Positions 29,054-45,032 of a stretch of 64,000 nucleotides of DNA are shown in pieces. Position numbers and translations under genes: made by a program. Numbering within the stretch: the first letter of the stretch is position 1; every line of letters starts with the position of its first letter. This stretch comes from Gammaproteobacteria bacterium (GTDB taxonomy: Bacteria > Pseudomonadota > Gammaproteobacteria > Tenderiales > Tenderiaceae), in contig JAKFXL010000011.1 of NCBI GenBank assembly GCA_021731365.1, positions 7,848 to 71,847 on the forward strand, in the 5' to 3' direction. The notes beneath the pieces are model-generated. The model was not told where the DNA came from. It ran no database searches and saw only the letters and a list, made by a program, of their open reading frames with translations.

Positions 29054-30808
29054 ATGAAACAAGCCATCGTCAACAGCTGTTTTGGCGTCACGTTAACCGT
29101 GCTCATCGCTGGCTGTGCTGGCCCAACCAACACGTTAAAACCTGCTGCCACCGCAGGTGCACACACCTCTGTGAGCGGCACCGGCAACGCAACACAAACA
29201 ACACCGGGTAACAAACGCCGCGCACCGCTGCCACCCAGCGAGGAGATAGCGCTCGGCGATGACGAAAATATGCCTGATGACGATCCTGACAACGCCGTCG
29301 AAGATCCCACCGCTGAAGATGAAGGTGAAGTGGGTCAGGCGGTATTAAGCGCCTCTCAGCGACTGCTCAACAAAAACAGTCTTAACGGCCAGAATGACGA
29401 TATCTGGCCACGGATTAGGGCCGGCTTTAGCCTGCCAGACAGCGACCACCCCAACGTACAACCCAGCCGCGAGTGGTTTGCCAACCACCAGGTCTACCTC
29501 GACCGCACCTTTACCCGTGCTGCCCCCTATATGCACTACATTATCGAAGAGGTCGAGGCACGGCAGATGCCCCTCGAGATTGCCCTGTTACCCGTAGTCG
29601 AAAGCGCCTTCCAACCCTTTGCCTACTCCCGCAGCCATGCCGCCGGCATCTGGCAATTTATCCCCGGCACCGCTACCAACTACGGACTGAAAATCAACTG
29701 GTGGTATGACGGCCGCCGTGACATCCACGCCTCCACCCACGCTGCCCTCACCTACCTGCAAAAGCTGCACAACCAGTTCAACGGTGACTGGCTGCTGGCC
29801 CTGGCCGCCTATAACTCTGGCGAAGGCACCGTAGGTCGCGCCATCATTGCCAACCAGAACCGTGGGTTGGGCACTACCTTCTGGGATCTGGATCTGCCAC
29901 GGGAGACCCGCAACTACGTACCACGCCTGCTGGCCATCGCCAATGTGGTTGCCGACCCGGAAAAGTTTGGTCTCACCCTGCGCACCATCCCCAACAAACC
30001 CCTGCTCAAGCAGGTCAACATCGGCGCACAGCTCGATCTGGCCATTGCCGCCGACATGGCCGAGCTTGAACTACAGGAGTTGTACACCTTCAACCCTGGC
30101 TTTAACCGCTGGGCCACGGCCCCCAACGGCCCCCATACACTCCTGTTGCCGCTGGAAAAAGCCGACGCCTTTGAAGATAAACTGGCGGAACTCACCCCTT
30201 CACAGCGGATGGCGTGGGCACAGTATCAAATCCAGCCAGGGGACAATCTGGGTGCCATTGCCAAAAAATATAATGTCAGTGTCGCCGCCATTCAGCGCGC
30301 CAACAAGCTGGATGGCAGCGCTGTACACGCCGGTGAAACACTGACCATTCCGACCTCCAGCCGCGCTTCACAGGAGTATCTGCTCACGGCCAACCACCGT
30401 TTAGAGAGCCGGCAGAACAAAAGTCAGGAGAAACAGAAGGTGGTCTACACCGTACGTGGTGGCGACACACTCTCCGAAATCTCCTCTAAACATAAAATCA
30501 GCGTCAGCAATCTGGCCAGCTGGAACAAAATGAAGAGCCGCGACACCCTCCGCAAAGGCCAAAAACTGGTGATATGGAAGGAAGGGACACGGGGCAGTAG
30601 CACCAAGCTCAGTAAAAACGGCAGCACCACCAAAAAAGTCAGCTACCGCGTCCGCAGTGGTGACTCACTGGCGCGAATCTCACAAAAATTCAACGTCACC
30701 ATCAACAACCTCAAAGAGTGGAACCCTAAAGTACGTGGCCAGTTCATTCAGCCGGGCCAACAGCTGGTTGTGTACGTCGATAGAAACAGGGCCACCGATA
30801 ACAGCTAA
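29054..30808 (+). CDS. mltD: Membrane-bound lytic murein transglycosylase D (SLT plus 3 LysM)
   Basis: Lipobox IAGC; VESAF, AGIWQF, AAYNSG, ETRNYVP; three LysM repeats. Confidence 0.9.
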   Translation: MKQAIVNSCFGVTLTVLIAGCAGPTNTLKPAATAGAHTSVSGTGNATQTTPGNKRRAPLPPSEEIALGDDENMPDDDPDNAVEDPTAEDEGEVGQAVLSASQRLLNKNSLNGQNDDIWPRIRAGFSLPDSDHPNVQPSREWFANHQVYLDRTFTRAAPYMHYIIEEVEARQMPLEIALLPVVESAFQPFAYSRSHAAGIWQFIPGTATNYGLKINWWYDGRRDIHASTHAALTYLQKLHNQFNGDWLLALAAYNSGEGTVGRAIIANQNRGLGTTFWDLDLPRETRNYVPRLLAIANVVADPEKFGLTLRTIPNKPLLKQVNIGAQLDLAIAADMAELELQELYTFNPGFNRWATAPNGPHTLLLPLEKADAFEDKLAELTPSQRMAWAQYQIQPGDNLGAIAKKYNVSVAAIQRANKLDGSAVHAGETLTIPTSSRASQEYLLTANHRLESRQNKSQEKQKVVYTVRGGDTLSEISSKHKISVSNLASWNKMKSRDTLRKGQKLVIWKEGTRGSSTKLSKNGSTTKKVSYRVRSGDSLARISQKFNVTINNLKEWNPKVRGQFIQPGQQLVVYVDRNRATDNS

Positions 30809-30844
30809 CCCAGACACGGATAGACCCAGCCGTTCTGTTACCTC

Positions 30845-30878
30845 ATCAAGGGCCACTACCCTGGCAGTGGCCCTTGAT
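30845..30878. terminator. Hairpin between convergent mltD and modC
   Basis: 13-bp perfect stem ATCAAGGGCCACT-N8-AGTGGCCCTTGAT; no long U-tract. Confidence 0.55.
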
Positions 30879-30896
30879 CATATAAAACCATACCCC

Positions 30897-31976
30897 CTAC
30901 CCCATAGAGACCGCTTTGATCATAACGTAGAGCCGCTGCCCGGGCACCAGTGCCAGCGTGTGCAGTGACTTGCGGCTGATGCTCGCCAGGAGTGGTGCCC
31001 CGACATCCAGTTTTACCTGTACCGCATGTTGATCCACCGCCGCCTCGGCAATCTCCATCACCGTTGCCTGCAGCACGTTCAGTACACTCGTGGCACTGGT
31101 GGGTGGCTCAAGGATCAGTGCAACGTTGCGCGCCAGCACCTGTACCCGCAGCTCACTGCCAACGGCTGCGTTTTGCAACGGCACGTAGAGCGGCTGTCCA
31201 TGCAGGTCAAGTTGCGTCAATCCAAAGTCGTGATCATGGGAGGCCACCCGAGTCTCCAATACGGCACCGGCCAACGCCCCTAACGAGTCGGCCCAACGGA
31301 GGTCACTGCACACCTCCAACAAGGGGCCACTAGCCACCACTGTCCCGTGGGAGAGCAGCAGCAGTGTCTGCGCCAGTGGCAGAATCTCCGCCAGTGAGTG
31401 GCTCACATAGAGTAGCGGTAAATGTAACTCATGATTCAACCGCTGGATGTAGGGGATAATCTCCTGCTTGCGCTGTTCATCCAGGGAGGCCAACGGCTCA
31501 TCCAGCAACAGCAACCGTGGGCTGGAGAGCAGTGCCCGGCCAATGGCTACCCGCTGCTGCTCCCCCAACGAGAGATGGCTGACGGTACGCGCCAGCAAGG
31601 GTTGTAACGCCAACAGCGTTACCACCTGCTGCCACTCAACCGTTCTCTGGCCCGGCGCTACCCGCTTATACCCATACTCCAGATTGCCGTGCACACTCAG
31701 ATGGCTGAACAGCCGTGGCTCCTGAAAGACAAAACCAAACCGGCGTTTGTAGGGGGGGACAAAAATACCCAGCGTCTCATCCTGCAACAGCTCGTCCCCG
31801 AGCCGCAGATATCCCCCTGGGCTGCGCTCCAATCCGGCGATACAGCGCAACAGGGTTGACTTGCCCGCGCCGGAGGGGCCAAAGATAGCACTCGCCCCCT
31901 GGGCGGGAAGATCAAACTCAGCGGCCAGGGTAAAGCCAGCCTGCTGTAAATGAAACCGCCCCTGCAACCGACTCAT
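30897..31976 (-). CDS. modC: Molybdate ABC transporter ATP-binding protein
   Basis: GPSGAGKS, LSLGEQQR, LLLDEP; C-terminal TOBE (TSVLNVL, IKAVS). Confidence 0.92.
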   Translation of the reverse strand: MSRLQGRFHLQQAGFTLAAEFDLPAQGASAIFGPSGAGKSTLLRCIAGLERSPGGYLRLGDELLQDETLGIFVPPYKRRFGFVFQEPRLFSHLSVHGNLEYGYKRVAPGQRTVEWQQVVTLLALQPLLARTVSHLSLGEQQRVAIGRALLSSPRLLLLDEPLASLDEQRKQEIIPYIQRLNHELHLPLLYVSHSLAEILPLAQTLLLLSHGTVVASGPLLEVCSDLRWADSLGALAGAVLETRVASHDHDFGLTQLDLHGQPLYVPLQNAAVGSELRVQVLARNVALILEPPTSATSVLNVLQATVMEIAEAAVDQHAVQVKLDVGAPLLASISRKSLHTLALVPGQRLYVMIKAVSMG

Positions 31977-32644
31977 CTACGCTCACCCCGCTGCATCCCA
32001 TATACCAACAGCAACACAACAAATGTAAAACCGAGCAGACCGATCGAGAGCAGATGGGCAGTGGCGTAATCCATCACCTCAACACGCTCAAAGATAGCAA
32101 TCGACAATACCTGCGTCTTACCGGGAATACTGCCACCCACCATCAAGACCACCCCAAACTCACCCAGCGTATGGGTAAAACCCAGCACAGCAGCCATGAT
32201 GTAACCCCGTCTTGCCAGTGGCATAACCACCGTGACAAAGGTATCCAGCGGGCGGGCACCCAAGGACCACGCACTCTCCAGCGGTTTGCGCCCAACGTTG
32301 GTAAAGGCACCCTGTAACGGCTGCACTACAAACGGTAAGGAGTAGAACACCGAGGCGATCACCAGACCACTAAAGGTAAAGGTCAATGGCGATCCGGTCA
32401 TGCCCTGCCAGGGGCCACCCAGCCACCCCTCCGGTCCCAACAGTATCAACAGATAAAAGCCCAACACCGTTGGTGGCAATACCAGCGGCAACGCCACCAC
32501 CGCCTCCAGCGGCGTGCGCCAGCGTGATCCGGTATGGGCCAGCCACCACGCCAGCGGCGTCCCCAGCAGCAGCAATACCACCGTGGTCACCGTGGCCAGT
32601 TGCAGGGTTAACCAGACCGGTGCCAGATCAATGGCGTTCAACAC
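31973..32644 (-). CDS. modB: Molybdate ABC transporter permease
   Basis: LPLVLPPTVLGFYLL, HTLGEFGVVLMVGG. Confidence 0.93.
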   Translation of the reverse strand: MLNAIDLAPVWLTLQLATVTTVVLLLLGTPLAWWLAHTGSRWRTPLEAVVALPLVLPPTVLGFYLLILLGPEGWLGGPWQGMTGSPLTFTFSGLVIASVFYSLPFVVQPLQGAFTNVGRKPLESAWSLGARPLDTFVTVVMPLARRGYIMAAVLGFTHTLGEFGVVLMVGGSIPGKTQVLSIAIFERVEVMDYATAHLLSIGLLGFTFVVLLLVYGMQRGERR

Positions 32645-32659
32645 AGCGCCTCACCACCC

Positions 32660-33115
32660 TCACAAAAAGTACCAGTCAGCAAACATCGCTGCCTGCCCAT
32701 GGTAACCACCGTCCCCATCCACCAGATTCCAGACCGTGGCCCGCTCAATCATAAAACGGCGACCATCATTGGCAATACGCACACCACTATAGTTATCAAT
32801 GAAGCCGTGGGTTTTTACCTCATACAGCAACCGCTCACGCGCCTCACGGTTAGGTTGCTCCGCAGAGTAGCGCGAGGGCAACGCCGTAAACGTCTGCCAC
32901 TCCATACCAAACAGATCCAATGCGGTTTGATTGCCATAATTAAAAACGGGGTCCGCCTCAGTACCGTGTGATACCAACGCAAACGGCGCACGATCAAAGG
33001 CCTCCGCCAACCGTTCCGGTAGCGACAACTCAAACGCCAGCAGCTGTCGTCCCGTTAAACGAGAGTAGCTATCCTGCAGCAACATAAGATGGGGAACTAA
33101 CGAATCAACCTGCAT
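32660..33115 (-). CDS. MEKHLA domain protein
   Basis: SHGTEADPVFNYGN, LPSRYSAE, YSGVRI, GQAAMF. Confidence 0.87.
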   Translation of the reverse strand: MQVDSLVPHLMLLQDSYSRLTGRQLLAFELSLPERLAEAFDRAPFALVSHGTEADPVFNYGNQTALDLFGMEWQTFTALPSRYSAEQPNREARERLLYEVKTHGFIDNYSGVRIANDGRRFMIERATVWNLVDGDGGYHGQAAMFADWYFL

Positions 33116-33538
33116 TTATATAAACCCAATATCAACCAACAACTCCAGGCACTTCTCATCAACATCAAGCGTAGCAATGGCCAGCGCACTAACCCACGCC
33201 GCGTCCAATACCGCAGCCCCCGGCTGTAACTCCCCGCCAAGATAATCTGCCTCCATCTCAATCACAACCGAATGTTCCGTTACTGCCCCATCCGTCGCTG
33301 ATACCATCCGGTCATAACCATGAAGCACCGCCCCGGAACGGATAACAACCCCCGTCGCCGCCAGCACCTCACGCTCAACACAGCGCTGCAAACACTCACC
33401 CCACGGCAACACCGCCAACGGCAGAGACCAACAGACCTCACCCGCACTACACACCCGCTTCACAAGCAATACCGCGCCGTAGTGCACCACCACTGCCGCA
33501 ATCTCAACAACCGGTGCCTTCATCAAATGCCCATCCAT
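33116..33538 (-). CDS. Nudix-fold protein with degenerate Nudix box
   Basis: VLLVKR...WSLP...GECLQRCVEREVLAATGV. Start uncertain. Confidence 0.7.
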   Translation of the reverse strand: MDGHLMKAPVVEIAAVVVHYGAVLLVKRVCSAGEVCWSLPLAVLPWGECLQRCVEREVLAATGVVIRSGAVLHGYDRMVSATDGAVTEHSVVIEMEADYLGGELQPGAAVLDAAWVSALAIATLDVDEKCLELLVDIGFI

Positions 33539-33582
33539 ACATCCAAACCCACACCACACAAACAATAAAAAACGGCGTTTTC

Positions 33583-33611
33583 TTGTCCCCCACACCCCAT
33601 CCGCGTAAACT
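33583..33611 (+). promoter_or_regulatory. Putative sigma-70 promoter for slyD
   Basis: TTGTCC-N17-TAAACT, 33 nt before the ATG. Confidence 0.45.
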
Positions 33612-33644
33612 GTGGCTTTAAATCACAAGCAAGGGTAATACACT

Positions 33645-34124
33645 ATGCAAATCGGCAATAACAAGGTAGCCGTCATCACCTACACCCTAACCGATAACAG
33701 TGGCACTGTCATCGATCAAGCCACCGCACAAGAACCCTTTGCCTTTATACACGGCATTGGCAACATCATCCCCGGGCTTGAAAGAGCGCTGGAAGGCAAA
33801 ACAGCCGGTGACACCCTCACAGTCGCCGTTGAACCTGCCGATGGTTACGGCGAACGTGATGATGCCCTCACCCAGGTCCTGGCCAAAGCCATGTTTGAAG
33901 GTGTTGATGAGATCACCCCCGGTATGCAGTTCCACGCCCAGACCCCCAACGGCATGAGCATTGTCACCGTAACCGCCGTTGAAGAAGACCAAGTCACCAT
34001 CGATGGCAACCACCCCCTCGCAGGTGTTGCACTCAACTTTAATGTCAGCGTACTTGAAGTGCGTGATGCCACTGAAGATGAGATCGAACACGGCCACATT
34101 CACGGCGAAGGGTGTGACCACTAA
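33645..34124 (+). CDS. slyD: FKBP-type peptidyl-prolyl isomerase SlyD
   Basis: GNIIPGLE, DGNHPLAG, VRDATEDEIEHGHIH. Confidence 0.93.
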   Translation: MQIGNNKVAVITYTLTDNSGTVIDQATAQEPFAFIHGIGNIIPGLERALEGKTAGDTLTVAVEPADGYGERDDALTQVLAKAMFEGVDEITPGMQFHAQTPNGMSIVTVTAVEEDQVTIDGNHPLAGVALNFNVSVLEVRDATEDEIEHGHIHGEGCDH

Positions 34125-34146
34125 CTCACTATATTAAATAGCGAGT

Positions 34147-34177
34147 AATAAAAGGGAGCTTGGCTCCCTTTTTTATT
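34147..34177 (+). terminator. Rho-independent terminator after slyD (possibly bidirectional)
   Basis: AATAAAAGGGAGC-TTG-GCTCCCTTTTTTATT. Confidence 0.85.
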
Positions 34178-34200
34178 GCCCATCAGATTACATCACAACT

Positions 34201-34511
34201 TTAAAAAACCCAGTTCAGCTGATCAACCCAGACAACCCCACCATCCTAAATAATTTCTGTATAGCATCAACAAGGCACTCAAGTTTCCACGTTTGAATCG
34301 AGGTATTTATTCCTTCATTTATAAAGCAATTCATCGCTTCATTTTAGGCATGAACAACAAGTTTCTTATTTAGGAATGTGGTGCTATATTTCGAACGGTG
34401 CACATACCAAGGATCAGCCGGAGATTTAATCCCTTGTTTATCAGTGGAATTCATATAACGATCCCAAAACCAACTGGCAGGAACTGTTTCTTTTGATACG
34501 CGGATATCCAT
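34201..34511 (-). pseudogene. Disrupted 5' fragment of a long-form integron integrase-like gene
   Basis: Translation FWDRYM...KQGIKSPADPWYVHR...KKLVVHA*...W...VDAIQKLFRMVG/VWVDQLNWVF* resembles, from recall, the N-terminal extension of long IntI proteins. It has an internal stop, a frameshift and no catalytic domain, and it diverges from an attC array. Confidence 0.6.
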
Positions 34512-34599
34512 ATTCCAGCACTGAAAAAAAATGGTGTAAAACCACAACGTCAAACGTTGCCTATGGGAATGGTATCAAAACGACAGTAGCGGATGTGCT

Positions 34600-34653
34600 A
34601 GACAGATTCTGTCTGGCACGCTTTTTAATATTTCTGTTTAATACACGTTAGCC
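34600..34653 (+). other. Putative attI site (core GTTAGCC at 34647-34653)
   Basis: Core site with no preceding attC hairpin, between the intI-like fragment and cassette 1; exactly complementary to GGCTAAC at 34915. Confidence 0.55.
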
Positions 34654-34914
34654 TAAAAATAATAAAACTAGTTGGGCGTTTACGTGCCCATAGAGTTAAA
34701 CCGTGGGGCGTTGACAAAAGGCATTATGTTGTGGTCTCGAATTGAAATCGCCAGGCATCAAGCGCATCATCAGAGGCGGGCTTGGTTCATTCAGTGTGCA
34801 ATGGTTAAGCACATCGTAGTCTGAACGTTTTTTGGAAAGTGGTCGCCACTAGCAGGCAGTGGGCCGCTCAGTTATAAACAATAGTGCGTTCGGCGTGTTG
34901 GGCTTTGTTCATCA

Positions 34915-35016
34915 GGCTAACTCAACAATTCACCAGACCCACTCCAGCGGCGGACCTATTCACTCCGTCTTTGCCACGTGCGCCGCTTCCGTGGTCCGGT
35001 TATCAAAACGTTAGGC
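34915..35016 (+). mobile_element. attC site 1 (end of ORF-less cassette)
   Basis: GGCTAAC ... ACCAGACC ... GGTCCGGT ... GTTAGGC; 102-bp imperfect palindrome. Confidence 0.75.
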
Positions 35017-35083
35017 ACTTAATTAAGCAGCAGTAGTAGCATGTTGGAATAGTACTTTCTGAATATTTTTAAAGGAGAGAATC

Positions 35084-35353
35084 ATGGAATCAAAATACAA
35101 AGTATCCCTACATATTCGACGCGAAACAGACGGTAAAGAAGTAGTCTTACAGTTTAATGAGAATCAAACTGCAGAAATTTCCAGTACGGATGGCTTGGAC
35201 TATGGCCACTTCAGGTTGGTCGCTGAAGGATTGCCTCAAACCGACGCTGTGGAAATAAAGGGGACTTTTGATCAGTGTCTTAAATATTGCACTATCGATG
35301 AGGGACATTCTTTGCCATATTGCCTAGCAATTTGTGGGGCTGCCGCACCTTAA
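35084..35353 (+). CDS. Cassette-borne hypothetical protein with C-terminal twin CX3C motif
   Basis: AAGGAG RBS; lies between GTTAGGC (35010) and GCCTAAC (35366). Confidence 0.72.
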   Translation: MESKYKVSLHIRRETDGKEVVLQFNENQTAEISSTDGLDYGHFRLVAEGLPQTDAVEIKGTFDQCLKYCTIDEGHSLPYCLAICGAAAP

Positions 35354-35365
35354 GTGCAGGCCGTG

Positions 35366-35443
35366 GCCTAACCCAGCACTCCAGCCGACCCGCTACAGCG
35401 GGCTTCGCCCGCTTACGCAGTCGGCTGAGTTCACACGTTAGCC
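35366..35443 (+). mobile_element. attC site 2
   Basis: GCCTAAC-CCAGCACTCCAGCCGAC...GCGGGCTTCGCCCGC...GTCGGCTGAGT-TCACAC-GTTAGCC; 78 bp with an extra unpaired base in the left arm. Confidence 0.88.
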
Positions 35444-35474
35444 ATATAATCAGAAAGAGTGGATCGGAGAAAAT

Positions 35475-35837
35475 ATGTCTAATTCAAACATCAATAGCGT
35501 GATTGCAGTCTTGCCAGTGAAGGATCAAGATGCGGCTGTCTTGTGGTACAAAAAGCTACTTGGGCGGGATGCGGATATCGTACCTGTAGACGGTGTGGCT
35601 GAGTGGCAGCTTGCCGAAAATGCATGGATTCAAGTGACTACTGATCCGGAGCGAGCAGGTAGCGCAACTGTCATTATTGGCGTGAATGACATCGAGTCTC
35701 AGTGTAAATTTTGCGCGGCAGCGAATGTGCCACATGGCGAAATTATAGAGTACCCGGAGATTATCAAGATGATTGAAGTGATCGATCCAGAAGGAAACAA
35801 GATTGCATTTGTACAAGATATTTCTAATGCGGCCTAA
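35475..35837 (+). CDS. VOC/glyoxalase family protein (gene cassette)
   Basis: LPVKDQDAAVLWYKKLLG...DPEGNKIAF; followed by a truncated attC start GCCTAATCAATCGTT. Confidence 0.85.
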   Translation: MSNSNINSVIAVLPVKDQDAAVLWYKKLLGRDADIVPVDGVAEWQLAENAWIQVTTDPERAGSATVIIGVNDIESQCKFCAAANVPHGEIIEYPEIIKMIEVIDPEGNKIAFVQDISNAA

Positions 35838-35869
35838 TCAATCGTTAAAGGGGTCACGTTAAAGGGGGC

Positions 35870-35930
35870 AGCCCGTAGGTCCGATTAGCCCGTAGGTCCG
35901 ATTACGCTGCGCTAATCGGACCTACGAGCT
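35870..35930. repeat. GTAG-type REP cluster (partial copy plus full hairpin)
   Basis: AGCCCGTAGGTCCGATT repeated directly, then CGTAGGTCCGATTA-CGCTGCGC-TAATCGGACCTACG. Confidence 0.85.
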
Positions 35931-36212
35931 ACTATTGGTGGCCAGCCTTAGGTGAGAAAATAGTACCTGTTCATTATGGTGTTTCGAAAAGGCATATTGA
36001 GTATTCGTCGTGGTATGACGAAAGCGGTGATTTTCAGGAAGCGGGAGATTATGATAAACCTTACAAAGTAATAAAGGCTCCTGAGTTTGGCCCAGAGTTG
36101 AGTATTGAATCTGACTTCTATTTTCACTCAAGAGAAGAGTTTACCCCTGAAAATGAGCGAAAATCAGTGCCGGCCTGTATAACTTGGCAAGATACACTAG
36201 AACAGTGGTGGG
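35930..36212 (+). pseudogene. Startless ~94-codon coding fragment between two REPs
   Basis: Stop-free frame YYWWPALGEKIVPVHYG...CITWQDTLEQWWE in AT-rich DNA; no RBS or start codon of its own. Confidence 0.5.
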
Positions 36213-36470
36213 AGCCCGTAGGTCCGATTAGCGCAGCGTAATCGGACGCATGTGAAATGGCTATCACCTGATTAAAAAACGGAAAACGGAAAATGCGTAA
36301 CTATTGTCAGGCCTTTATTCTCGGTGGCGCATGTTCAGGATTGGCTCTATTCCACCATTACGTCAAACTGGGGATTTGCTCTCTGAATTGGCGTGGTGAT
36401 CCCAGGGTGAGCCTTGAGGGTGGCGATTGTCATGCGTCCGATTACGCTGCGCTAATCGGACCTACGAGCT
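36213..36470 (+). mobile_element. Mini-RAYT element copy 1 (inverted REPs around an internally deleted RAYT/TnpA-REP)
   Basis: Perfect 36-bp IR (36217-36252 / 36431-36466); interior MRNYCQAFILGG joined to HVQDWLYST..HYVKLGI..LNW. Confidence 0.78.
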
Positions 36471-36519
36471 GTTGATCACCGACTCTGTCTGTCTGCCATG
36501 CCTGTCAGCACTATTGGCA

Positions 36520-36638
36520 TTAATATACGGACGCCTGAATAACAATTTCATTTCACATCAATCAATTACGATGGCATCATGGGCGTCAGTATATTAAATA
36601 ACGTCCGGGCGCTGGTGCCCGTCTATTACCTGTTAGGG
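36520..36638 (+). other. Second attI-like region
   Basis: 15/16 IR TTAATATACGGACGCC / GGCGTCAGTATATTAA around an IHF-like CATCAATCAATTA; ends in core GTTAGGG, complementary to CCCTAAC at 37079. Confidence 0.5.
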
Positions 36639-36645
36639 GCCGTAT

Positions 36646-37065
36646 ATGACAATGACCAGCTATGAAATCGCAGATTACGCATTTAAGAGCGACTCCGTTC
36701 TTTCCGATGACAATGAGAAACTCATCGGCTACCTATGGGGGCTACAAAATCACACCAATACGTCCCCCGGTACAGAACAAAGAGACGTCATTCGCGGCAT
36801 CACGATCAATCACATTCTGTTACAGCGGCATATTGACCGCCTCGATAAACAAAACACAAAAACCCAGCGGTTAGTCATCGCTCTCACAGTAGCAGCTCTA
36901 TTAAGCGGAATACCGCAAATATGGCTTGCGTACAGGGCGGACAGAAGAGCTGAGACAGAACAAAAAACCATTGCAATCCAACAGCCAGCGCCAGCCCCAC
37001 AATCGGTAGCCCCATCCCCGGCGTTACCCCCGTCTTCCGATCAACCCAAGAAGAAAACCCCTTGA
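36646..37065 (+). CDS. Cassette-borne hypothetical protein (one TM helix, Pro-rich tail)
   Basis: ORF fills the interval between GTTAGGG and CCCTAAC. Confidence 0.72.
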   Translation: MTMTSYEIADYAFKSDSVLSDDNEKLIGYLWGLQNHTNTSPGTEQRDVIRGITINHILLQRHIDRLDKQNTKTQRLVIALTVAALLSGIPQIWLAYRADRRAETEQKTIAIQQPAPAPQSVAPSPALPPSSDQPKKKTP

Positions 37066-37078
37066 ACTTAACCGCAGC

Positions 37079-37165
37079 CCCTAACCCTGCATTCGAGCTG
37101 ACGCGTCTGACGCCGCTATTCTTCTCTGGCTTTTTCATGCACACGGCTCAATTTGAACGTTGGGC
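37079..37165 (+). mobile_element. attC site 3
   Basis: CCCTAAC-CCTGCATTCGAGCTG ... CGGCTCAAT-TTGAAC-GTTGGGC; 87 bp. Confidence 0.78.
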
Positions 37166-37183
37166 TTCGCAAGGAACCATCTC

Positions 37184-38032
37184 GTGCCATTAAAAAAGTT
37201 AAATATTAGGGGATGCAAAGCAACTACGACACCTGATGGTCAAGTGATTTTCAAGGTGCGTGATACACATACTCTAATTCAAGCGGCAGGATATTTAAAA
37301 CATGTAAGAGGAAGTAAAAACTCTGAGTTAGTGTGCTTTCGTGGTGAGTCAAAGTTGTATCCAACACTTCCTCCCACGGCGTTTCGTGGTATCTCCTCAC
37401 ATAGCGCTGTTTCAAGCGCGATTAACCGGATCAACAAAGCAATAATTCAGTTCGAGAGGCCGCTAAAGTCTACGGGTGTATATGCCCACGAAGCGCTGCT
37501 GCAGCATTACGGCCTCAAAACTACATGGGTGGATTTGGTTGATAATATATGGGTCGCTCTTTGGTTTGCCTGCCATAATGCTCTATCCGTCGGCCCGGCC
37601 GGTGAGCATCTGCACTTTGAACGCCGCGTTCCACGTACTGAACCAACTGGAAAAGCGTATGTGCTGTTAGTTGCTGTGGATGCCGTGGCACCAGACAATG
37701 CATGTCCTGGTTTTTACGCCGGGACAAATACAGAGTTAATAGACCTCCGTATAGCGGCGCCCTCAGTGTTTGTGCGTCCTCATGCACAGCACGGTCTTCT
37801 CATGAGAAAGAAAGGAAATACAGTTCAACGCCCCACGGATTACAGTAGCCAGATCAGAGGCATCCTAGAGATAGAGCTCGCCGATGCATTAGAGTGGCTA
37901 GGAAACAGTAGCGCGCTAAGCGTGCACAGTCTTTTTCCGCCCCCAACTTATGACAATGGCTATAGAAATTTACTATCCGTTGAATTCAAAGGGGCAAAAA
38001 ATGTCGGATGTGTGTCGCATATCGGAGCATAG
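37184..38032 (+). CDS. FRG domain protein (gene cassette, attC lost)
   Basis: CFRGES...LQHYGLKTTWVD...VALWFAC...AQHG. GTG start 8 nt after AAGGA. Confidence 0.85.
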   Translation: MPLKKLNIRGCKATTTPDGQVIFKVRDTHTLIQAAGYLKHVRGSKNSELVCFRGESKLYPTLPPTAFRGISSHSAVSSAINRINKAIIQFERPLKSTGVYAHEALLQHYGLKTTWVDLVDNIWVALWFACHNALSVGPAGEHLHFERRVPRTEPTGKAYVLLVAVDAVAPDNACPGFYAGTNTELIDLRIAAPSVFVRPHAQHGLLMRKKGNTVQRPTDYSSQIRGILEIELADALEWLGNSSALSVHSLFPPPTYDNGYRNLLSVEFKGAKNVGCVSHIGA

Positions 38033-38044
38033 CCCGTAGGTCCG

Positions 38045-38120
38045 TATATGGCCCCCTCTCGATTTGCAAACAAATTGGTGTAAAGGGATAAGGAAAATTG
38101 CATCCGTATATTCGGCTTAT
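38045..38120 (-). mobile_element. IS110/IS1111-family right-end-like remnant inserted in a REP
   Basis: Minus strand GCCGAATATACGGATGCA...TTGCAAATCGAGAGGGGGCCATATA abuts the half-REP AGCCCGTAGGTCCG (38030-38044). Confidence 0.5.
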
Positions 38121-38134
38121 TGTCGAGAAGGTAG

Positions 38135-38390
38135 GCCCGTAGGTCCGATTAGCACGGCGTAATCGGACGCATGTGAAATGGCCACCACCTGATTAAAGAA
38201 ATGGCAAACAGAACATGCGTAACTATTGCCGGGCCTTTATTTTCGGTGGCGCATGTTCGGGATTGGCTCTACTCCACCATTACGTCAAGCTGGGCATTTA
38301 CTCTCTGAATTGGCGTGGTGATCCCAGGGTGAGTCTTGAGGGTGGTGATTGTCATGCGTCCGATTGCGCTGCGCTATTCGGACCTACGAA
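38135..38390 (+). mobile_element. Mini-RAYT element copy 2
   Basis: About 90% identical to 36213-36470 by manual alignment; same deletion junction; slightly decayed REPs. Confidence 0.78.
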
Positions 38391-38690
38391 CTTACGCGCT
38401 TTATAGGCCGTTTTACGACGATCATTTGTCAGTCGTTGTGTTTGCTGTGGCCTGTATCCCCTTGATTCTGCATTGCGTTTTAATTGTCGGCTAATGGTGG
38501 AAGGGCTTCGTTCCATCAGTACAGCAATATCCTGTTGTGAATGTCCGGCTTTCTTTAATGCATAAATTTGGTATCGTTCGTTTTCGGTCAGTTGGTTGTA
38601 GTTCATTGTGCTTTTCTCTTGGCGGAGGGAGGTGCTGACTCTACCAGCTGGCCTCTCTGTTACCAATTGCACTTATTATCCGAAACCGCC
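38391..38690 (-). mobile_element. Truncated IS30-family element (left IR plus transposase N-terminus, 38606-38391)
   Basis: MNYNQLTENERYQIYALKKAGHSQQDIA...RSPSTISRQLKRN (IS30 HTH); terminal GGCGGTTTCGGATAATAAGTGCAA at 38690-38667. Confidence 0.85.
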
Positions 38691-38713
38691 AATTTTAAAG
38701 AGGCAAGATAATC

Positions 38714-39331
38714 ATGAAATATTCAAAGGTATTTACCAGTCGCATTTCTGCTATCTCGCTCTCATTCGCTGTTGGATGCGGGGCAATGCTGTTACCCGCA
38801 CAACATGCCATGGCGGAAATTCCAATGGAGGCGAGCAGTGCCAAGCCCCAGGGCTGCCCACAGGTTGATCCCGATGCAAATCTTGAAGCGCTCGGTATTG
38901 TGTTAACACCGCCTCCTCAGCCTATCGCCAACTTTGTACCCGCCGTGCGAGTTGGCAAGCTCATGTATCTGGCGGGCAATGGTCCACGCTTGGCAAATGG
39001 ATCATTCATCACAGGTAAGCTGGGTTCGAAACCAGACCAGCTTACCATCGATGAGGGCTACCAGGCGGCCCGGGTGACGATGATCAATCAATTGGCGGTG
39101 CTGAAGGCAGAACTCGGCGAGCTCAAGAAAGTAAAACGTATTGTGAAAGTTTTTGGGATGGTGAATTCAGATCCTGATTTCACGGATCATCCAAGAGTAA
39201 TCAACGGTGCTTCGAATCTGCTCGTAGACGTATTTGGTGAGTGCGGCAAGCATGCACGCTCAGCTGTGGGAATGGTTTCTCTGCCATTCAATATTGCTGT
39301 CGAAATTGATATGGTGGTTGAGCTTCGTTAG
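38714..39331 (+). CDS. Rid (YjgF/YER057c/UK114) family protein with N-terminal signal-like extension
   Basis: ANFVPAV, GKLG, VINGASNLL, GKHARSAVG, LPFNIAVEI. Confidence 0.85.
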   Translation: MKYSKVFTSRISAISLSFAVGCGAMLLPAQHAMAEIPMEASSAKPQGCPQVDPDANLEALGIVLTPPPQPIANFVPAVRVGKLMYLAGNGPRLANGSFITGKLGSKPDQLTIDEGYQAARVTMINQLAVLKAELGELKKVKRIVKVFGMVNSDPDFTDHPRVINGASNLLVDVFGECGKHARSAVGMVSLPFNIAVEIDMVVELR

Positions 39332-39370
39332 TCTGATGGTTAAAAAGGTCAGCGCCCTCTAATGTTAATC

Positions 39371-39430
39371 TTAACAATCATCACCAATCCTTCGACGGGC
39401 TCAGGACGAATGGGGTTACTCAGAGGTGCA
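39371..39430 (+). repeat. MITE-like element family A, partial copy 4 (right half)
   Basis: TTAACAATCA...CCTTCGACGGGCTCAGGACGAATGGGGTTACTCAGAGGT. Confidence 0.7.
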
Positions 39431-39586
39431 TTATCTGCTTGGCGACGGAGGTCCACACTGTGCTTTGTGGTTACGAAATCAACTTGTTAAAAGAGATGTT
39501 TTCAATGAATTTTATTTGTTGGTGCCATTCAGCCCCATGTTACAGAGACGTTACTGCCTTCATAAAACGACCATGAAATAGAGTAT

Positions 39587-39618
39587 AAAAAAATGGCCCG
39601 CCATAATGACGGGCCATT
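39587..39618 (-). terminator. Rho-independent terminator of the metallophosphatase gene
   Basis: AATGGCCCG..CGGGCCATT stem with a T-tract on the minus strand. Confidence 0.75.
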
Positions 39619-39646
39619 ATCCTGCTTTAAGCTTTCTGTATGCTTT

Positions 39647-42031
39647 TTAGTTTTGATCGTACTGGTTAAATCTGTAGTTCACTTGGCCATAGGTGCTGTT
39701 GTATCCGGCCGTGCCTACTGCACGTGCTCCCCACACTGGCTCGACGGTTGGGAAACCAAGGCTTGGGCGCGTATCTGGTAATGCAGCTGTCATATCGATG
39801 CGTGGGAATGGAAGTTCCGCTGCCTCTATGTTGCCACCCAGGAACTGTTTGATGTAAAGCGCGACAACTTCTACCGCGTCGACATTTTCGTAAGCGGCGT
39901 AGTCAGCCGCCAGCGTTGGCCAGCTTTGTACCAGGCGCAAATTTGCGAGTGTCTCGGGCGCTGTGCCTTTGATGCGCATGATTTTGCGAATTGAGTTTGG
40001 CGTTGTTGCTGAGTTGGGTGCCGGGGCGATATTGTTCACAACGGTGGGTGAGACATCATAGTAGTACGAGGCGTAGCGATAGCGTTTGCCATTGTCGGCA
40101 TTCGACAATACATAGCCGGTTGCATCATCGCTAATTGAGGTGCGTCCCAAGGCAAACTGGGAGACGCGTCCTTGCACATCGTTGATCTTATAGTTTATGC
40201 CCGTGACTGGATTGATTGTGTCGACACGCCCAATGACACCGTAGGGATCAAACTTCATGGTTACACCGCTGAAGTTGAAGAACCAGCCCCCCGCCCATTG
40301 GGTGACATCCGGATTCATGCAGCTATCCGCTGCACTCTCTGCCTGGTTGTTCAGCGCGCCACCAGTAAGCTCGGTCACTGCAACTTGTGGCCCAATAGAT
40401 AAAAAGTGGTATAGATCTTCGTAAGTGATTGCGCTGCCAGCTGGGTAGCTGTTAACAAAACGGAAGCCACGGATCGCAGCAATAAGATATTTGCCATCGG
40501 TTGACGGCGTGATGTTGCCGCTGGTATCAAGCCCTGTTTTCTCACTGGCCGGTAACAGTGCATTGGTGACCACACGGAATGCATCGGTGATCAGAGAGTG
40601 CGCGGCACCTTCGATGACCCCCGGCATTATGCCGTTGGCGGGATCCCACTGATGTGAGAAGTTATTGCGTGACAACTCGACATCGGTATAACCAATCACT
40701 TGATTCAGCGGTGCGTATGGCTTGGTGCCATTGAACGGATTGGTGAAGGCGTTTGGATCAAAAGCGGCGCCTTTAAACGGTGCTGTCACCTCTTCAACTT
40801 TAGCGGCGATGATGGGATCTTCTGCCACTGCATCGGTTATATCGTGCTCTTTCCATTTCCAGGATTCGATGCTGTAGTTTGTATCGCCTGCCTTCTTTTT
40901 AAATTTGAATGCCAGCTCGCCGACTTGAGCACCATCTTCCCCCTCTTCAATAATCAAGGTCTTGCCACCGTTCGGCGTAGTGATTTGTACTGGATAGTTG
41001 GTCTCCTCATGCATATCGGAAGAGAAGATGACGTCGATGCCGTTGTAGTGCTCGGCGTTGTACATGTTTTCTGCCAGTCCTGCCTCGGATAACATAATTA
41101 CCATATCAACCCCTTTCTGATTACGGAGGATATCAACGTACTTGGGAATTTCCGGGACTGTATTGAAGCCGCCCGGATTTTCTGGGTCCTGATTGGCATG
41201 ACCACCCACTGGCCATTGAATGGCTCTGTTATTTGCAGAGGCGACTTTGCCGTTGCAGTTGGTGAAGGTGACACCCTCTGTTACGTTACCGCCCACAATT
41301 TGTGGGCCACGGTTTGTTGTGCAGCCGAAGATGCCCACCTTTACACCATCTATATTCACAACACGATAAGGTTTGCCGTTGTAGGGGGCGACAACCAGTT
41401 CGCCAACAGCTGTGGCCGCGTTAGCGCTGTACGGTGCTGCGGGATCTGCGAATCCCCCCGACGTATTGCCCGCCTCACCGTTGTAGTAGGCGTTCACCGC
41501 TGTTATGCCCCACGGTGCGATCGGCGCTACGTACTCATTTTCTGAAGTGGCTGGATTATCCGGCGTACCTAAAAAGAGTTCACGGAAGCGCCCCAAACCG
41601 TAGGTGTGCTCCCAATTACCAGGGGCAAATGCGTCGACGCCCATCAAGTTTACGACATCAACCATCGCTTGCCCTTTGGTGAACAGGGTCTGGGCACCTC
41701 CCTGAATGGTATCGCCGGTATGTATGTAGAAAGAGTTCTGCGCGCGGTTGCGTATTGTTTTTACCACGGTGGCAACACGTGCCAATCCGCCTTCTGATGG
41801 TTGGCCGTCGCGCACATTGGCGTGTGCATGGAAATCACCGTGAAAATCACCTGTGTGAATAAAGGTAATGTGACGAACATCGGTCGCGTTTATGATGTTC
41901 TCTTTTTTATTTACATTATTAGCACCGATTATTTTATCGTTGCTGGCATGGACCGGTGCGACAACTAACACACTGGATGCAAGCGTGCCTAATATTGCAG
42001 ACAACAATACTTTTTGTTTAAATTTCATCAT
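39647..42031 (-). CDS. Secreted 5'-nucleotidase/SoxB-like dimetal hydrolase
   Basis: Signal peptide (VHA); GDFHG, GGLAR, GDTIQG, GNWE, SSDMHE; C-terminal nucleotidase-like domain (RGFRF, WAGGW). Confidence 0.8.
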   Translation of the reverse strand: MMKFKQKVLLSAILGTLASSVLVVAPVHASNDKIIGANNVNKKENIINATDVRHITFIHTGDFHGDFHAHANVRDGQPSEGGLARVATVVKTIRNRAQNSFYIHTGDTIQGGAQTLFTKGQAMVDVVNLMGVDAFAPGNWEHTYGLGRFRELFLGTPDNPATSENEYVAPIAPWGITAVNAYYNGEAGNTSGGFADPAAPYSANAATAVGELVVAPYNGKPYRVVNIDGVKVGIFGCTTNRGPQIVGGNVTEGVTFTNCNGKVASANNRAIQWPVGGHANQDPENPGGFNTVPEIPKYVDILRNQKGVDMVIMLSEAGLAENMYNAEHYNGIDVIFSSDMHEETNYPVQITTPNGGKTLIIEEGEDGAQVGELAFKFKKKAGDTNYSIESWKWKEHDITDAVAEDPIIAAKVEEVTAPFKGAAFDPNAFTNPFNGTKPYAPLNQVIGYTDVELSRNNFSHQWDPANGIMPGVIEGAAHSLITDAFRVVTNALLPASEKTGLDTSGNITPSTDGKYLIAAIRGFRFVNSYPAGSAITYEDLYHFLSIGPQVAVTELTGGALNNQAESAADSCMNPDVTQWAGGWFFNFSGVTMKFDPYGVIGRVDTINPVTGINYKINDVQGRVSQFALGRTSISDDATGYVLSNADNGKRYRYASYYYDVSPTVVNNIAPAPNSATTPNSIRKIMRIKGTAPETLANLRLVQSWPTLAADYAAYENVDAVEVVALYIKQFLGGNIEAAELPFPRIDMTAALPDTRPSLGFPTVEPVWGARAVGTAGYNSTYGQVNYRFNQYDQN

Positions 42032-42592
42032 GTAGTGCCCCTTTTTATATTGACGTAAAAACAAGATGCCATAAATTAAATAGGCATAATGGTTGCCCCG
42101 TTTACAACTTGGTTTGGTTTCATTGCATTGGTAAAGGCCGGGTAGCCATCAGCTAGAGTGATGTGCACCCCAATGGAGTGATCCCGCATGCACCATATCA
42201 AAGGAGTATGATTTCCGATAGAGATTATCCCAGGATAACCTCTGAATAAGCCCATAGGTCCGGGGTTGGTAACATGTGAGGCAACAAACAGCTCACCCGA
42301 TTGTCATTACAAGGTCAAACCAACGTCAATGGCCCGTGAAAACTCTACTACATGGCCACAACACCTAAAAACTGGCGCATTATTATTATGCAGTGAAGGG
42401 TGAGGTGACTGGATCTCATCACGATCACAAAGACCTTTGACGAACCCATAAAGATAAAAAAATCGATGGAGAAACATGTGCCCTACACAACTTGGAAACC
42501 AAAAAAATCGTGCTCCTTAGTCATTCGGGAAAATGATACATTGTTTTTTCTACACCATCGTTAGCCATATCACTCAACCAAAGAGGCTCCTC

Positions 42593-43153
42593 ATGAAAAA
42601 ATCAGTTCTACTGCTCGCGTGTACGCTATCTTCCGTATTGTTATTCAACCTTGCCAATGCCAACCCCAACCCGCCATCCCCTTATTCAGGACAAGAGTCG
42701 CGAGAGATCAAGGCGCTCAGTTCCGAGGATGTTCAGGCCTATCTTTCCGGAAAAGGTTTGGGATTTGCGAAGGCCGCTGAACTGAATGGTTATCCGGGCC
42801 CATCTCATGTGTTGGTTTTGGCTACCGAACTGGGGCTGACCGCAGATCAAAAACAACGCACCGAATTACTCTTCAAGGGCATGGAATCCAAGGCCATATC
42901 GCTGGGTCATCCGCTGGTCGAAGAGGAACGTAAACTAGACCGGATGTTCGCGGAAAAAACAGTTACAGCAGAGTCACTTAATCAGTCACTAAAACGCATT
43001 AGTGAATTGCACGGACAGGTGCGCCAGGCACACCTTGAAGTCCACTTAGCCCAAGCTGAAATACTGACCCCCACACAGCTATCCAAATATATGAAGCTTC
43101 GTGGATACTCTGACACTCATCAAGCCGGAAGCCATGCTGGCCATACACATTAA
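42593..43153 (+). CDS. Periplasmic Spy/CpxP-like (LTxxQ) protein, probable former cassette
   Basis: Signal peptide; AELNGYPGPSHVL, LTADQ, LTPTQ, His-rich tail; preceded by GTTAGCC at 42560. Confidence 0.8.
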   Translation: MKKSVLLLACTLSSVLLFNLANANPNPPSPYSGQESREIKALSSEDVQAYLSGKGLGFAKAAELNGYPGPSHVLVLATELGLTADQKQRTELLFKGMESKAISLGHPLVEEERKLDRMFAEKTVTAESLNQSLKRISELHGQVRQAHLEVHLAQAEILTPTQLSKYMKLRGYSDTHQAGSHAGHTH

Positions 43154-43156
43154 ATT

Positions 43157-43206
43157 GGCTAATCTTACGTTCAAGAGGGACACCGCAAAGACGCGGTGCC
43201 CCTCAT
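43157..43206 (+). mobile_element. Degenerate/truncated attC
   Basis: GGCTAAT-CTTACGTTCAAGAGGGACACCGC-AAAGAC-GCGGTGCCCCT; right end and core site missing. Confidence 0.6.
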
Positions 43207-43577
43207 CGTTGCGAGTGCGTGGCCTAAACTGGCTGTAATAGCCAGCAACATATTTCGTAATGCCATGCTTTTCTTTTTAAAAAGAGGCATAGCCAATCTT
43301 AGATGTCCACTCGGCTTTCAGATTTCTGACAACACGCACCATCGCACCATTGCGCCCAAAGCACTTCATGGGACCGCCCCAAAAACAATTCGATCATGCA
43401 CCTTACATATATCAATATGTTTGGTGTGTAATCCGAAACTAAAGAGGATTTGTCTTGAAAGTCGGGGATGATTGGGCAAAGATGTAGGCGATCAATTTCT
43501 CGAGGGCTTGAGAATGGTTTCCTACAGACTCATTAGGCGTCACAGGTAGATCGAACCAAAACACCAAGGAGATTCAC

Positions 43578-45032
43578 ATGAAGAAAGATGACCGCAAACC
43601 CACAACAACAGATGCTGGTATCCCCGTTGCCAGCGATGAACACTCACTCACCGTGGGGCCCGATGGCCCCATCCTGCTCCAGGACCATTACCTCATCGAG
43701 CAGATGGCCAATTTCAACCGGGAGAAGATCCCGGAGCGACAGCCCCACGCGAAGGGCTCCGGGGCCTTCGGGCACTTCGAGGTCACCAACGATGTCAGCC
43801 AATACACCAAGGCGGCGGTCTTCCAGCCAGGGACAAAGACGGATACGTTGATCCGATTCTCCACGGTGGCGGGTGAGCAGGGCAGCCCTGACACCTGGCG
43901 TGATCCACGTGGCTTCGCGCTGAAGTTTTTCACCAGCGAGGGCAACTACGACATGGTGGGGAACAACACTCCGGTGTTCTTTATCCGTGATCCCATGAAG
44001 TTTCAGCACTTCATCCGTTCCCAGAAACGCCGTGCGGATAACGGCCTGCGCGACCACGATATGCAGTGGGACTTCTGGAGCCTATCACCCGAGTCGGCCC
44101 ACCAGGTCACGCTGTTAATGGGTGACCGAGGGATCCCGAAGACCTGGCGGCACATGAATGGCTACTCAAGCCACACTTACATGTGGGTCAATGCAAGCGG
44201 CGAGCGCTTCTGGGTGAAGTATCACTTCAAGACTGACCAGGGCATCGACTTCCTCACGCAGGAAGAGGCTGACAGGCTCGCCGGCTCTGACGGTGACTAC
44301 CACCGGCGTGACCTGTTCGAGGCGATCAAGCGGGGTGATCATCCGAGCTGGACACTGAAAATGCAGATCATGCCCTTCGAGGAAGCCAAGACCTATCGCT
44401 TCAACCCCTTCGACCTGACCAAGGTGTGGCCGCACGCTGACTACCCGTTACATGAGGTTGGCCGGCTGACGCTGGATCGCAACCCGACCGACTTCCACAC
44501 CGAGATCGAGCAGGCGGCGTTCGAGCCGAACAATCTCGTGCCAGGGATCGGTGTCAGCCCGGACAAAATGTTACTCGGCCGCCTCTTCGCCTACGCCGAT
44601 GCCCACCGTCACCGCCTGGGGGTCAACTACAAGCAGATTCCGGTTAACCGGCCTAAGTCAGAGGTGAACAGCTATAGCAAGGATGGGCCGATGCGGATTG
44701 ATAACGTATCCGACCCTGTGTACGCACCAAATTCTAAGGGTGGCCCAAAGGCCGACAGTAGCCGTTATTCCGAGACAGCGATCTGGGAGGCCAACGGCGA
44801 GTTCACCCGTACCGCTTACACCTTACGTACAGACGATGATGACTACGGTCAGGCGGGCACGTTGGTACGCGAGGTTATGGACGATGAGCAGCGCAGTCGG
44901 CTGGTATCGAACGTCGTCGGGCACCTCAAGGGAGGGGTGTCCGAACCCGTACTACAGCGTGCGCTTGAATACTGGTGCAATATCGACAAGGAAATAGGCA
45001 ACCGTATCACCAAGGAGATGAAGGGGTGCTGA
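43578..45032 (+). CDS. katA: Monofunctional small-subunit heme catalase
   Basis: [43 protein letters not shown]; AAGGAG RBS. Confidence 0.93.

Follow-up and report, generated by a model that had tools for sequence, protein, structure and literature searches.

What are the two 258-bp direct repeats that lie 1.9 kb apart in the genome of a gammaproteobacterium of the Tenderiaceae, and by what means was the unit copied? The repeats occupy positions 36213-36470 and 38135-38392 of a 64,000-nucleotide stretch of contig JAKFXL010000011.1 (assembly GCA_021731365.1), the whole of which we call the window (G000:C8:7848-71847, G000 being the window's own genome). An initial annotation had read them as "mini-RAYTs", non-autonomous elements flanked by repetitive extragenic palindromes (REPs) and built from a collapsed gene for a REP-associated tyrosine transposase (RAYT). 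A RAYT or tnpA-REP gene flanked by inverted REPs or by bacterial interspersed mosaic elements (BIMEs) has been termed a REPtron, as in the case of yafM of E. coli K-12 (Ton-Hoang 2012, PMC3333891). On comparison with an intact relative, each 258-bp repeat is an internally deleted REPtron, the shell of a RAYT gene with its REP ends. The earlier reading was thus essentially right, with mobilisation presumed by analogy. We refer to the 258-bp unit as the type-A mini-RAYT, and to a shorter one of 179 bp as type B.

The repeat finder returned the pair as two segments (36214-36279/38135-38200, 92%, and 36274-36470/38196-38392, 91%) that make up one 258-bp unit with a 1-nt indel. In a MAFFT alignment 235 of 257 aligned sites are identical, and the 22 differences come close to the 20 or so that had been counted by hand over about 255 bp; the BLAST E of 4.7e-101 for copy 2 against copy 1 excludes chance for the repeat pair. 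Copy 1 ends in inverted arms of 40 nt that are 98% complementary, the single mismatch, at position 4, leaving the perfect 36-nt stretch of GTAG-REP repeat already described (Table 1). Each arm consists of AGCYC, GTAG, a 9-bp stem (GTCCGATTA/TAATCGGAC) closing an 8-nt loop, and GCATG, and the termini AGCCC/GTAGG are conserved at 12 or more loci. Folded as single-stranded DNA, copy 1 forms a 40-bp terminal stem at -66.2 kcal/mol (z -8.96), and none of 200 shuffles did as well. The inverted repeat of copy 2 is degraded (43 nt, 84% complementary), its REPs having five arm changes and the right stem a mismatch.

Where does the interior come from? The element was sought in 61 genomes, namely the own genome and 60 relatives, and full-length matches were found only in the own genome and in G002, a congeneric metagenome-assembled genome (MAG). 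Split matches in G001-G004, all of them draft or metagenome-assembled genomes, had query positions 1-121 and 111-258 several hundred bases apart and thereby pointed to undeleted relatives. In G002:C266:652-1303 the same 40-nt ends enclose an open gene of 176 aa, the product of which matches E. coli TnpA-REP (PDB 4ER8; E 6.4e-58, with LPEHMHC and HVDY(V/I).(V/I)NPVKHG aligned) and the NCBIfam family NF047646, "REP-associated tyrosine transposase", at 202.8 bits (cut-off 80); against Pfam Y1_Tnp it scores 19.4 bits, under the cut-off of 23. The 5' part of the mini is 85% identical to this locus (E 2.6e-32) and the 3' part 77% (E 1.1e-28), which bears out the claim that the interior is made of RAYT termini. 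The open reading frames (ORFs) of the two copies, 36293-36475 and 38215-38406, read MRNYC(Q/R)AFI(L/F)GGACSGLAL(F/L)HHYVKLGI(C/Y)SLNWRGDP..., and HVQDWLYST is read in a shifted frame of the interior; these peptides are present just as the initial annotation gave them.

Five type-A copies are known: copies 1 and 2 of the window, G002:C26:3393-3657 (hereafter G002:C26a), G002:C26:2609-2881 (G002:C26b) and G002:C7:397-655. All five share three lesions. The first is a 386-bp gap relative to the intact unit, by which residues ~14-141 are gone; its edges, GGTGGCACATG (codons 11-14) and GGTGGC(A/G)CGTG (codons 139-143), have an 11-nt microhomology, GGTGGCRCRTG. The HUH motif of the intact protein, H60-M61-H62, lies inside this deletion, as does the catalytic Y129 (HVDYVHVNP region), and the minis encode no HUH. 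The second lesion is a 7-bp gap inside the near-repeat TTCCACC/TTTCACC, and the third a TGA>TGT change at the former stop. In a 17-sequence alignment the five copies also have many substitutions in common that are absent from every full-length copy. The common lesions and substitutions in five of five copies indicate that the deletion occurred once and that its product was copied afterwards, as the initial annotation had proposed for the loss of the HUH motif and catalytic tyrosine; judged by its edges, the deletion is the product of slippage or recombination at the microhomology, with a single origin.

The five copies belong to four lineages, one being the pair of copy 1 and G002:C26a (256 of 257 sites identical) and the others copy 2, G002:C26b and G002:C7, which are 89-92% identical to one another. 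They stand in four genomic contexts in two genomes, and no relation is seen between the flanks of copy 1, copy 2, G002:C26a and G002:C7, even next to the AGCYC/GTAGG termini. On either side of copy 1 and G002:C26a all sequence is different, and at both termini the similarity gives out within 1-3 nt. G002:C26:1-2880 is collinear with window 38135-40998 (94-95%), which makes copy 2 and G002:C26b positional counterparts; to the left of copy 2 the own genome and G002 share nothing but G002:C26a/copy 1. An N-terminal remnant of an IS30-family transposase lies to the right of both copy 2 and G002:C26b, and the C-terminal remnant of the gene, oriented alike, lies on the other side of G002:C26b (profile positions 217-266 of 267, E 7.6e-24). 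This mini therefore sits inside an IS30 gene from which ~180 codons are missing and, being placed between two parts of one gene, arrived after the IS30; no intact copy of this IS30 element was found in G000 or G001-G005, and NCBIfam profile positions were used instead. G002:C7 provides the third context, with the mini beside a Tae4-like gene. As to the dispersed copies and empty sites that had been suggested as a check, copies were thus found in G002, and the search for an empty site of copy 1 gave none in G001-G004, where its left flank (35931-36212) has no match. As protein, that flank has one distant homologue among 401 genomes of the class, which places copy 1 just past a natural gene end and not inside the gene.

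Conservation is concentrated at the ends. Between the minis and the intact locus the arms (79 nt) are 98.5% identical and the interior (178 nt) 74.4%; comparison of the minis with one another gives 97.0% and 90.1%, nearly all arm changes being in copy 2 of the window. No target duplication or flanking consensus was found at 12 or more element ends, in keeping with expectation for Y1 HUH elements. A pattern specific to the junction, run against 185,579 species genomes, returned no additional type-A copy. The junction pattern GTGGCGYATGTTCRGGATYGGC had three matches in metagenome contigs, all of them unrelated sequences with ~23 nt in common, and these were set aside as chance. Metagenome contigs from four runs in four studies diverge from the window at 36213 and 36471 or at most 5 bases away, which is weak support because the arms are common to the whole RAYT-unit family. 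Among Logan contigs, one of X1 runs from 36471 directly back to 36216 (side 31 nt) and one of X5 skips 36256-36430 (side 23 nt); with sides so short and arms so repetitive, these joints were not counted as a circle junction or an excision.

RAYTs have been described as single-copy genes unable to move themselves (PMC3116915, PMC6006769, PMC5581495), and near-identical duplicates on the same replicon as 7.7% of all RAYTs, or 0.8-6.3% in the groups not resembling insertion sequences (ISs) for which figures are given (PMC5581495). This premise, on which the initial annotation had leaned, does not hold here, because the parental RAYT unit is multi-copy in the genus. Full-length or contig-truncated units occur in G002 (C266, open; C246, with stops and frameshifts), G001 (C89, its canonical ATG out of frame and open from residue 3; C36, open to the contig end), G003 (C292, open; C78; C297) and G004 (C217), and RAYT end fragments in G000:C43, G001:C24 and G001:C12. 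The family has undergone at least four independent internal deletions, among them G001:C15:380-756 and G002:C133:2027-2520, and two of the products were multiplied, their ends strongly conserved. The second of these is the type-B mini, an independent deletion derivative in which the left REP is joined to the last ~125 bp of the unit; it occurs at G000:C8:6260-6438, G002:C159:2820-3006 and G001:C41:4392-4557, and a fourth time, with an insert, at G000:C10:76832-78024. In another family of the class, G059:C247:3766-4016 (L037) is a remnant of ~250 bp with the same REPs that reads ..HIDYIHVNPPKYGHV.. and ..GLYSLN.., an independent RAYT remnant with a different deletion.

The insert of G000:C10:76832-78024 (L005/L006) is 1 kb long and encodes Rap1a, an immunity protein (PF18602, E 7e-13), and Tae4, a type VI amidase effector (PF14113, E 2e-16). 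Its two sides are marked by a 39-nt direct duplication, beginning at the 3' arm of the left REP hairpin, and G001:C41:4392-4557 is the same type-B element without the insert. The type-B mini of G000:C8:6260-6701 is 95% identical to G002:C159:2820-3244 and opposite in orientation relative to a shared flank of 185 bp, as would result had its inverted arms recombined with each other. At G000:C43:329-1184 (L021) a Y1 gene of 238 aa (Y1_Tnp 54 bits; NF047646 69 bits, cut-off 80) has the last 117 bp of the RAYT unit, right REP included, directly behind it, and the first 29 nt of G000:C43 equal, when reverse-complemented, the left flank at the RAYT pseudogene G002:C246. At several independent loci (window 35872-35905, G002:C266:640-671, G003:C292:2437-2468 and G001:C36 near 552) a complete REP follows a 17-nt tandem duplication of the REP 5' arm (CCGTAGGTCCGATTAGC), which may be the footprint of a stereotyped cleavage-rejoining event.

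Which genome, then, holds an enzyme for the minis? The intact RAYT with the same REP that the initial annotation had proposed to look for exists at G002:C266 and has no equivalent in the own genome, which is without a cognate RAYT. Of the five PF01797 matches in the own genome none is flanked by the mini REP, and its only intact RAYTs, on C4 and C22, are 50-51% identical to the G002 protein and have different REPs (GTAGGGTGCGC.. and GTAGGGTGGGC..). The window copies are consequently immobile fossils there, copy 2 already decaying, and a cognate RAYT shares a genome with minis only in G002, as binned. The REP core (15-mer, at most one mismatch) occurs 13, 15, 23, 21 and 1 times in G000-G004 (controls 0-2 per genome), counts so low that most REPs must be ends of RAYT-derived units. 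RAYT homologues (E<=1e-45) are present in 89 of 400 sampled genomes of the class, a tally including four genomes flagged as unpublished on which no claim rests, and the nearest outside the genus is 72% identical.

How could a hollow unit have been copied? The best explanation, and in our judgement a fairly probable one, is that an internally deleted REPtron was copied, presumably through mobilisation by a RAYT in trans. An ancestral REPtron lost 386 bp between two 11-nt near-repeats within its gene while keeping both REP ends, and the hollow unit was then copied to give at least four lineages in four contexts and two genomes. The copying would have taken place in the way proposed for the movement of REPINs (REP doublets forming hairpins) and of the miniature inverted-repeat transposable elements (MITEs) derived from the IS200/IS605 family. 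An intact cognate RAYT, acting in trans, would bind the GTAG-REP hairpin on single-stranded DNA, cut between C and T at or near the CTAC/GAGCT end, and rejoin the strand elsewhere without target duplication. E. coli TnpA-REP binds single-stranded REPs only if they have a 5' GTAG and an irregularity in the stem, cuts between C and T on either side of an inverted REP, including within CTAC and at sites >400 nt away, and performs strand exchange (PMC3333891). On each strand the mini offers GTAG and a hairpin at the 5' end, and ..GGACC/TAC GAGC/T (slashes between C and T) at the 3' end, and by this analogy we infer mobilisation in trans by a cognate RAYT.

Several points weigh against this explanation. 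No transposition event, excision product or enzyme activity has been observed. The type-A copies are few, five in all, and two of them lie within 0.5-1.7 kb of each other in both genomes, which is odd for random transposition. In G002 the contigs with minis (5.5 and 5.9 kb) and the contig with the RAYT (8.1 kb) are joined by binning alone; with G001-G004 being drafts or MAGs, the copy counts, and in G002 the co-residence of minis with an intact RAYT, depend on how contigs were assembled and binned. REP ends are also breakpoints elsewhere, as in the CoiA-like gene cut at a solo REP and the ~180 missing IS30 codons, so that some contexts could owe their origin to recombination or deletion at REPs. 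Finally, gene conversion among REPs could be the source of the conserved ends.

Recombination at REPs combined with module-level gene transfer is the main rival. Here the same deleted REPtron would have spread without a transposase, by horizontal transfer of modules and by homologous or illegitimate recombination, with the arms or the whole 258 bp serving as crossover points or fragile hairpins. The backbone to the left of the island that holds the minis is 96% identical in G001 and 75% in G002, whereas single island modules are 94-99% identical to G002, which makes the island a horizontally exchanged mosaic; its modules are patchily shared, a YjgF-like gene alone being 96% identical to G001:C60 and a VOC-like gene 99% identical to G002:C234. 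REP ends coincide with the truncations of the CoiA-like and IS30 genes, the two minis are adjacent in both genomes with the spacer between them replaced, and the flipped type-B mini of G002:C159 versus G000:C8 is what recombination between inverted arms is expected to give. Yet the recombining of dispersed copies presupposes their earlier dispersal, variable crossovers would not end the similarity of copy 1 and G002:C26a 1-3 nt from the termini, as a discrete unit does, and the ends are far more conserved than the interior even in comparison with the distant intact locus. We therefore regard this rival as possible but rather unlikely.

A more far-reaching version of the copied REPtron deserves mention, tentative as it is. 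The RAYT lineage could still be, or have been until recently, an autonomous REPtron that moves as a unit and spawns a series of forms from minis to solo REPs, its REP ends capturing or swapping cargo. Hints of such cargo handling are the Rap1a-Tae4 pair inside a type-B mini, with the empty form in a sister genome, the FRG cassette between the type-A minis, and the Tae4-like pair beside the mini of G002:C7. If this were true, the lineage would represent a living link from insertion sequences of the IS200/IS605 type to RAYT/REPIN systems, and the autonomous REPtron a new way to move small gene cassettes.

Might the minis have been retained for what they encode? The ORF of 60-63 aa (RAYT N-terminus, 8-residue linker, C-terminus) could be imagined to be a functional small protein, for instance a regulator or inhibitor of RAYT, being open in four of the five copies and having the frame of its C-terminal HRYVK..W motif restored by the 386-bp and 7-bp deletions together. 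The probability of such a restoration is 1 in 3, however, and the variable sites of the ORF are distributed 6/9/9 over the codon positions, with no third-position excess. G002:C26b has ACG in place of the ATG start codon, and with the stop lost the ORF reads through the REP and ends differently in each copy; the 60-aa ORF had no Pfam match. We consider a protein function very improbable and the type-A minis to be non-coding. Simple local duplication, segmental or tandem, with ordinary decay of one RAYT locus and no mobility, is suggested by two copies 1.9 kb apart in direct orientation and by the known pseudogenised RAYTs with deletions (PMC3686654), but is scarcely credible for copies that share no flank, are 9% diverged from each other while copy 1 matches a copy in another genome at 256 of 257 sites, and have a further relative in a third context, G002:C7. 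Similarity between the window copies stops at the inverted-repeat termini, and with flanks unrelated and further copies in G002 they are not part of a larger segmental duplication, an outcome that the initial annotation had named as fatal to its reading.

The copied, internally deleted REPtron can be set beside several known systems. One kind of MITE derives from insertion sequences of the IS200/IS605 family by internal deletion. The mini likewise results from an internal deletion of the transposase gene with both subterminal hairpins kept, falls within the size range of 100-400 bp, lacks a target-site duplication and a transposase of its own, and has terminal inverted repeats with exact ends in unrelated flanks (four contexts, five copies). 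It differs in that its parent is a Y1 enzyme of the RAYT class (class 2, "domesticated"), for which the papers searched yielded no derivatives of this sort. REPINs are non-autonomous and mobilised by a RAYT (Bertels and Rainey 2011, PMC3116915), and like them the mini has inverted REPs that pair into one long hairpin, no transposase of its own, and ends more conserved than its middle. Unlike them it has a spacer of 178 nt of recognisable RAYT gene and not a short linker, five copies (two in the own genome and three in G002) and not tens to hundreds, and, in the own genome, no cognate RAYT. The suggestion that the pair is a snapshot of a REPIN or MITE arising from a RAYT thus stands as regards a deleted RAYT unit that was copied, and is tempered by the low copy number and by the fossil state in the own genome.

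According to published work there is one REPtron for each REP type, and it does not transpose as a unit (PMC3333891, PMC6006769). The likeness lies in a parent protein that matches 4ER8 and NF047646 and in GTAG hairpins inverted on both sides; the differences are that the unit in this genus has several full-length and deleted copies per genome at different loci, that the genome-wide REP population is only 13-23, and that the window has the shell and no enzyme. Pseudogenised RAYTs with frameshifts or deletions have been recorded as single decaying loci (Nunvar 2013, PMC3686654). Such in-place decay between REPs is seen in G002:C246, G001:C15, G002:C133 and G059:C247, whereas in the case of the minis one deletion product was multiplied. 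In the literature searched we came upon no account of a RAYT deletion derivative that had been multiplied; the supplementary tables of PMC3686654 and PMC5581495, with their lists of pseudogenised or duplicated RAYTs, might hold cases.

Table 1. Features of the mini-RAYT locus, in window positions.
Feature	Position	Strand	Evidence and remarks
Solo REP	35864..35930	+	Repeat search; one hairpin with GTAG and CTAC on opposite sides; preceded by 17-nt partial REP duplication
CoiA-like gene, C-terminal third	35927..36214	+	5' part cut at solo REP; natural end (..WW) abuts copy 1
Mini-RAYT copy 1 (type A)	36213..36470	+	Left REP, RAYT 5' untranslated region, codons 1-13, junction, RAYT 3' end, right REP
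Left terminal arm of copy 1	36213..36252	+	AGCCC, GTAG, REP hairpin (GTCCGATTA / loop GCGCAGCG / TAATCGGAC), GCATG
RAYT start codon and first ~13 codons	36293..36333	+	Ends in deletion junction GGTGGCGCATG (36323-36333)
RAYT 3' coding remnant (..QDW.YS..HRYVKLG..W.GDP..)	36334..36430	+	7-bp deletion ~36350-36357; TGA>TGT at 36428-36430
Right terminal arm of copy 1	36431..36470	+	CATGC, inverted REP hairpin, CTAC, GAGCT
Conserved 145-bp upstream "leader" repeat	36494..36638	+	Internal inverted repeat 36520-36535/36582-36597
Cargo ORF between minis, 139 aa	36646..37065	+	No family
Cargo ORF between minis, 290 aa, FRG domain	37160..38032	+	PF08867, E 7.6e-9, 36.8 bits, cut-off 25
Truncated left-REP stub (AGCCCGTAGGTCCG...)	38025..38050	+	Repeat search; directly after FRG gene
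Mini-RAYT copy 2 (type A)	38135..38392	+	Same three lesions, REPs degraded; positional counterpart of G002:C26:2609-2881
IS30-family transposase, N-terminal remnant (HTH_38)	38393..38672	-	E 2.8e-14; IS30 profile positions 1-37; cut exactly at right end of copy 2

The remainder of the locus is made of small modules (Table 1). The solo REP is a fully collapsed unit. The gene fragment between it and copy 1 is 38% identical to the C-terminus of a 256-aa ORF in G177, from the sequence of which we take the gene to be CoiA-like, and had no Pfam or NCBIfam match. The 145-bp leader recurs, at 79-88%, directly upstream of unrelated genes in G002:C7 (Tae4-like), G002:C55, G002:C189 and G004:C127, and may be a common promoter or leader of island cassettes; it had no Rfam match. 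The cargo genes (36646-38032) were not found in G001-G004. Pieces of the cargo that are >=99% identical are present in contigs of runs from two other studies, and contigs of run X7 give no cover over 36640-37980, which is not evidence of absence.

A VOC/glyoxalase-like gene at 35437-35843 (PF00903, a weak match with E 0.0056) has a 99% identical counterpart at G002:C234:5614-6020, where the context is different, and looks like a gene-sized horizontal exchange. The 374-bp repeat at 34646-35019 has three to four tandem copies in G001:C73 and occurs in other G001 contigs as well; in G001:C24 its immediate neighbour is a RAYT 3' fragment that has kept its REP. The motif TTAA(A)GGGG(G/T)CA by two module borders was considered as a repeat family and rejected, its 10 matches being scattered, and two sub-threshold Rfam matches in window 34000-39500 were put down to chance. 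No tRNA was found in window 30000-45000.

What does a copied shell of a REPtron tell us about the RAYT family? REPINs have been proposed to stem from the hairpin ends of an ancestral IS200-like element (PMC3116915, PMC6006769, PMC5581495). Intermediates have been lacking so far, and the mini, as we see it, is a rare one on the way from a transposon to the tiny REP repeats. In one genus a single RAYT family presents, side by side, full-length units, internal deletions, multiplied minis and solo REPs. For annotation this means that a short ORF that lies between REPs and begins MxNY(R/C).. is a transposase relic and not a gene. Together with the small population of free REPs, these steps make the hypothesis of REPIN origin testable with an enzyme of the G002:C266 type and with the 258- and 179-bp units as substrates.

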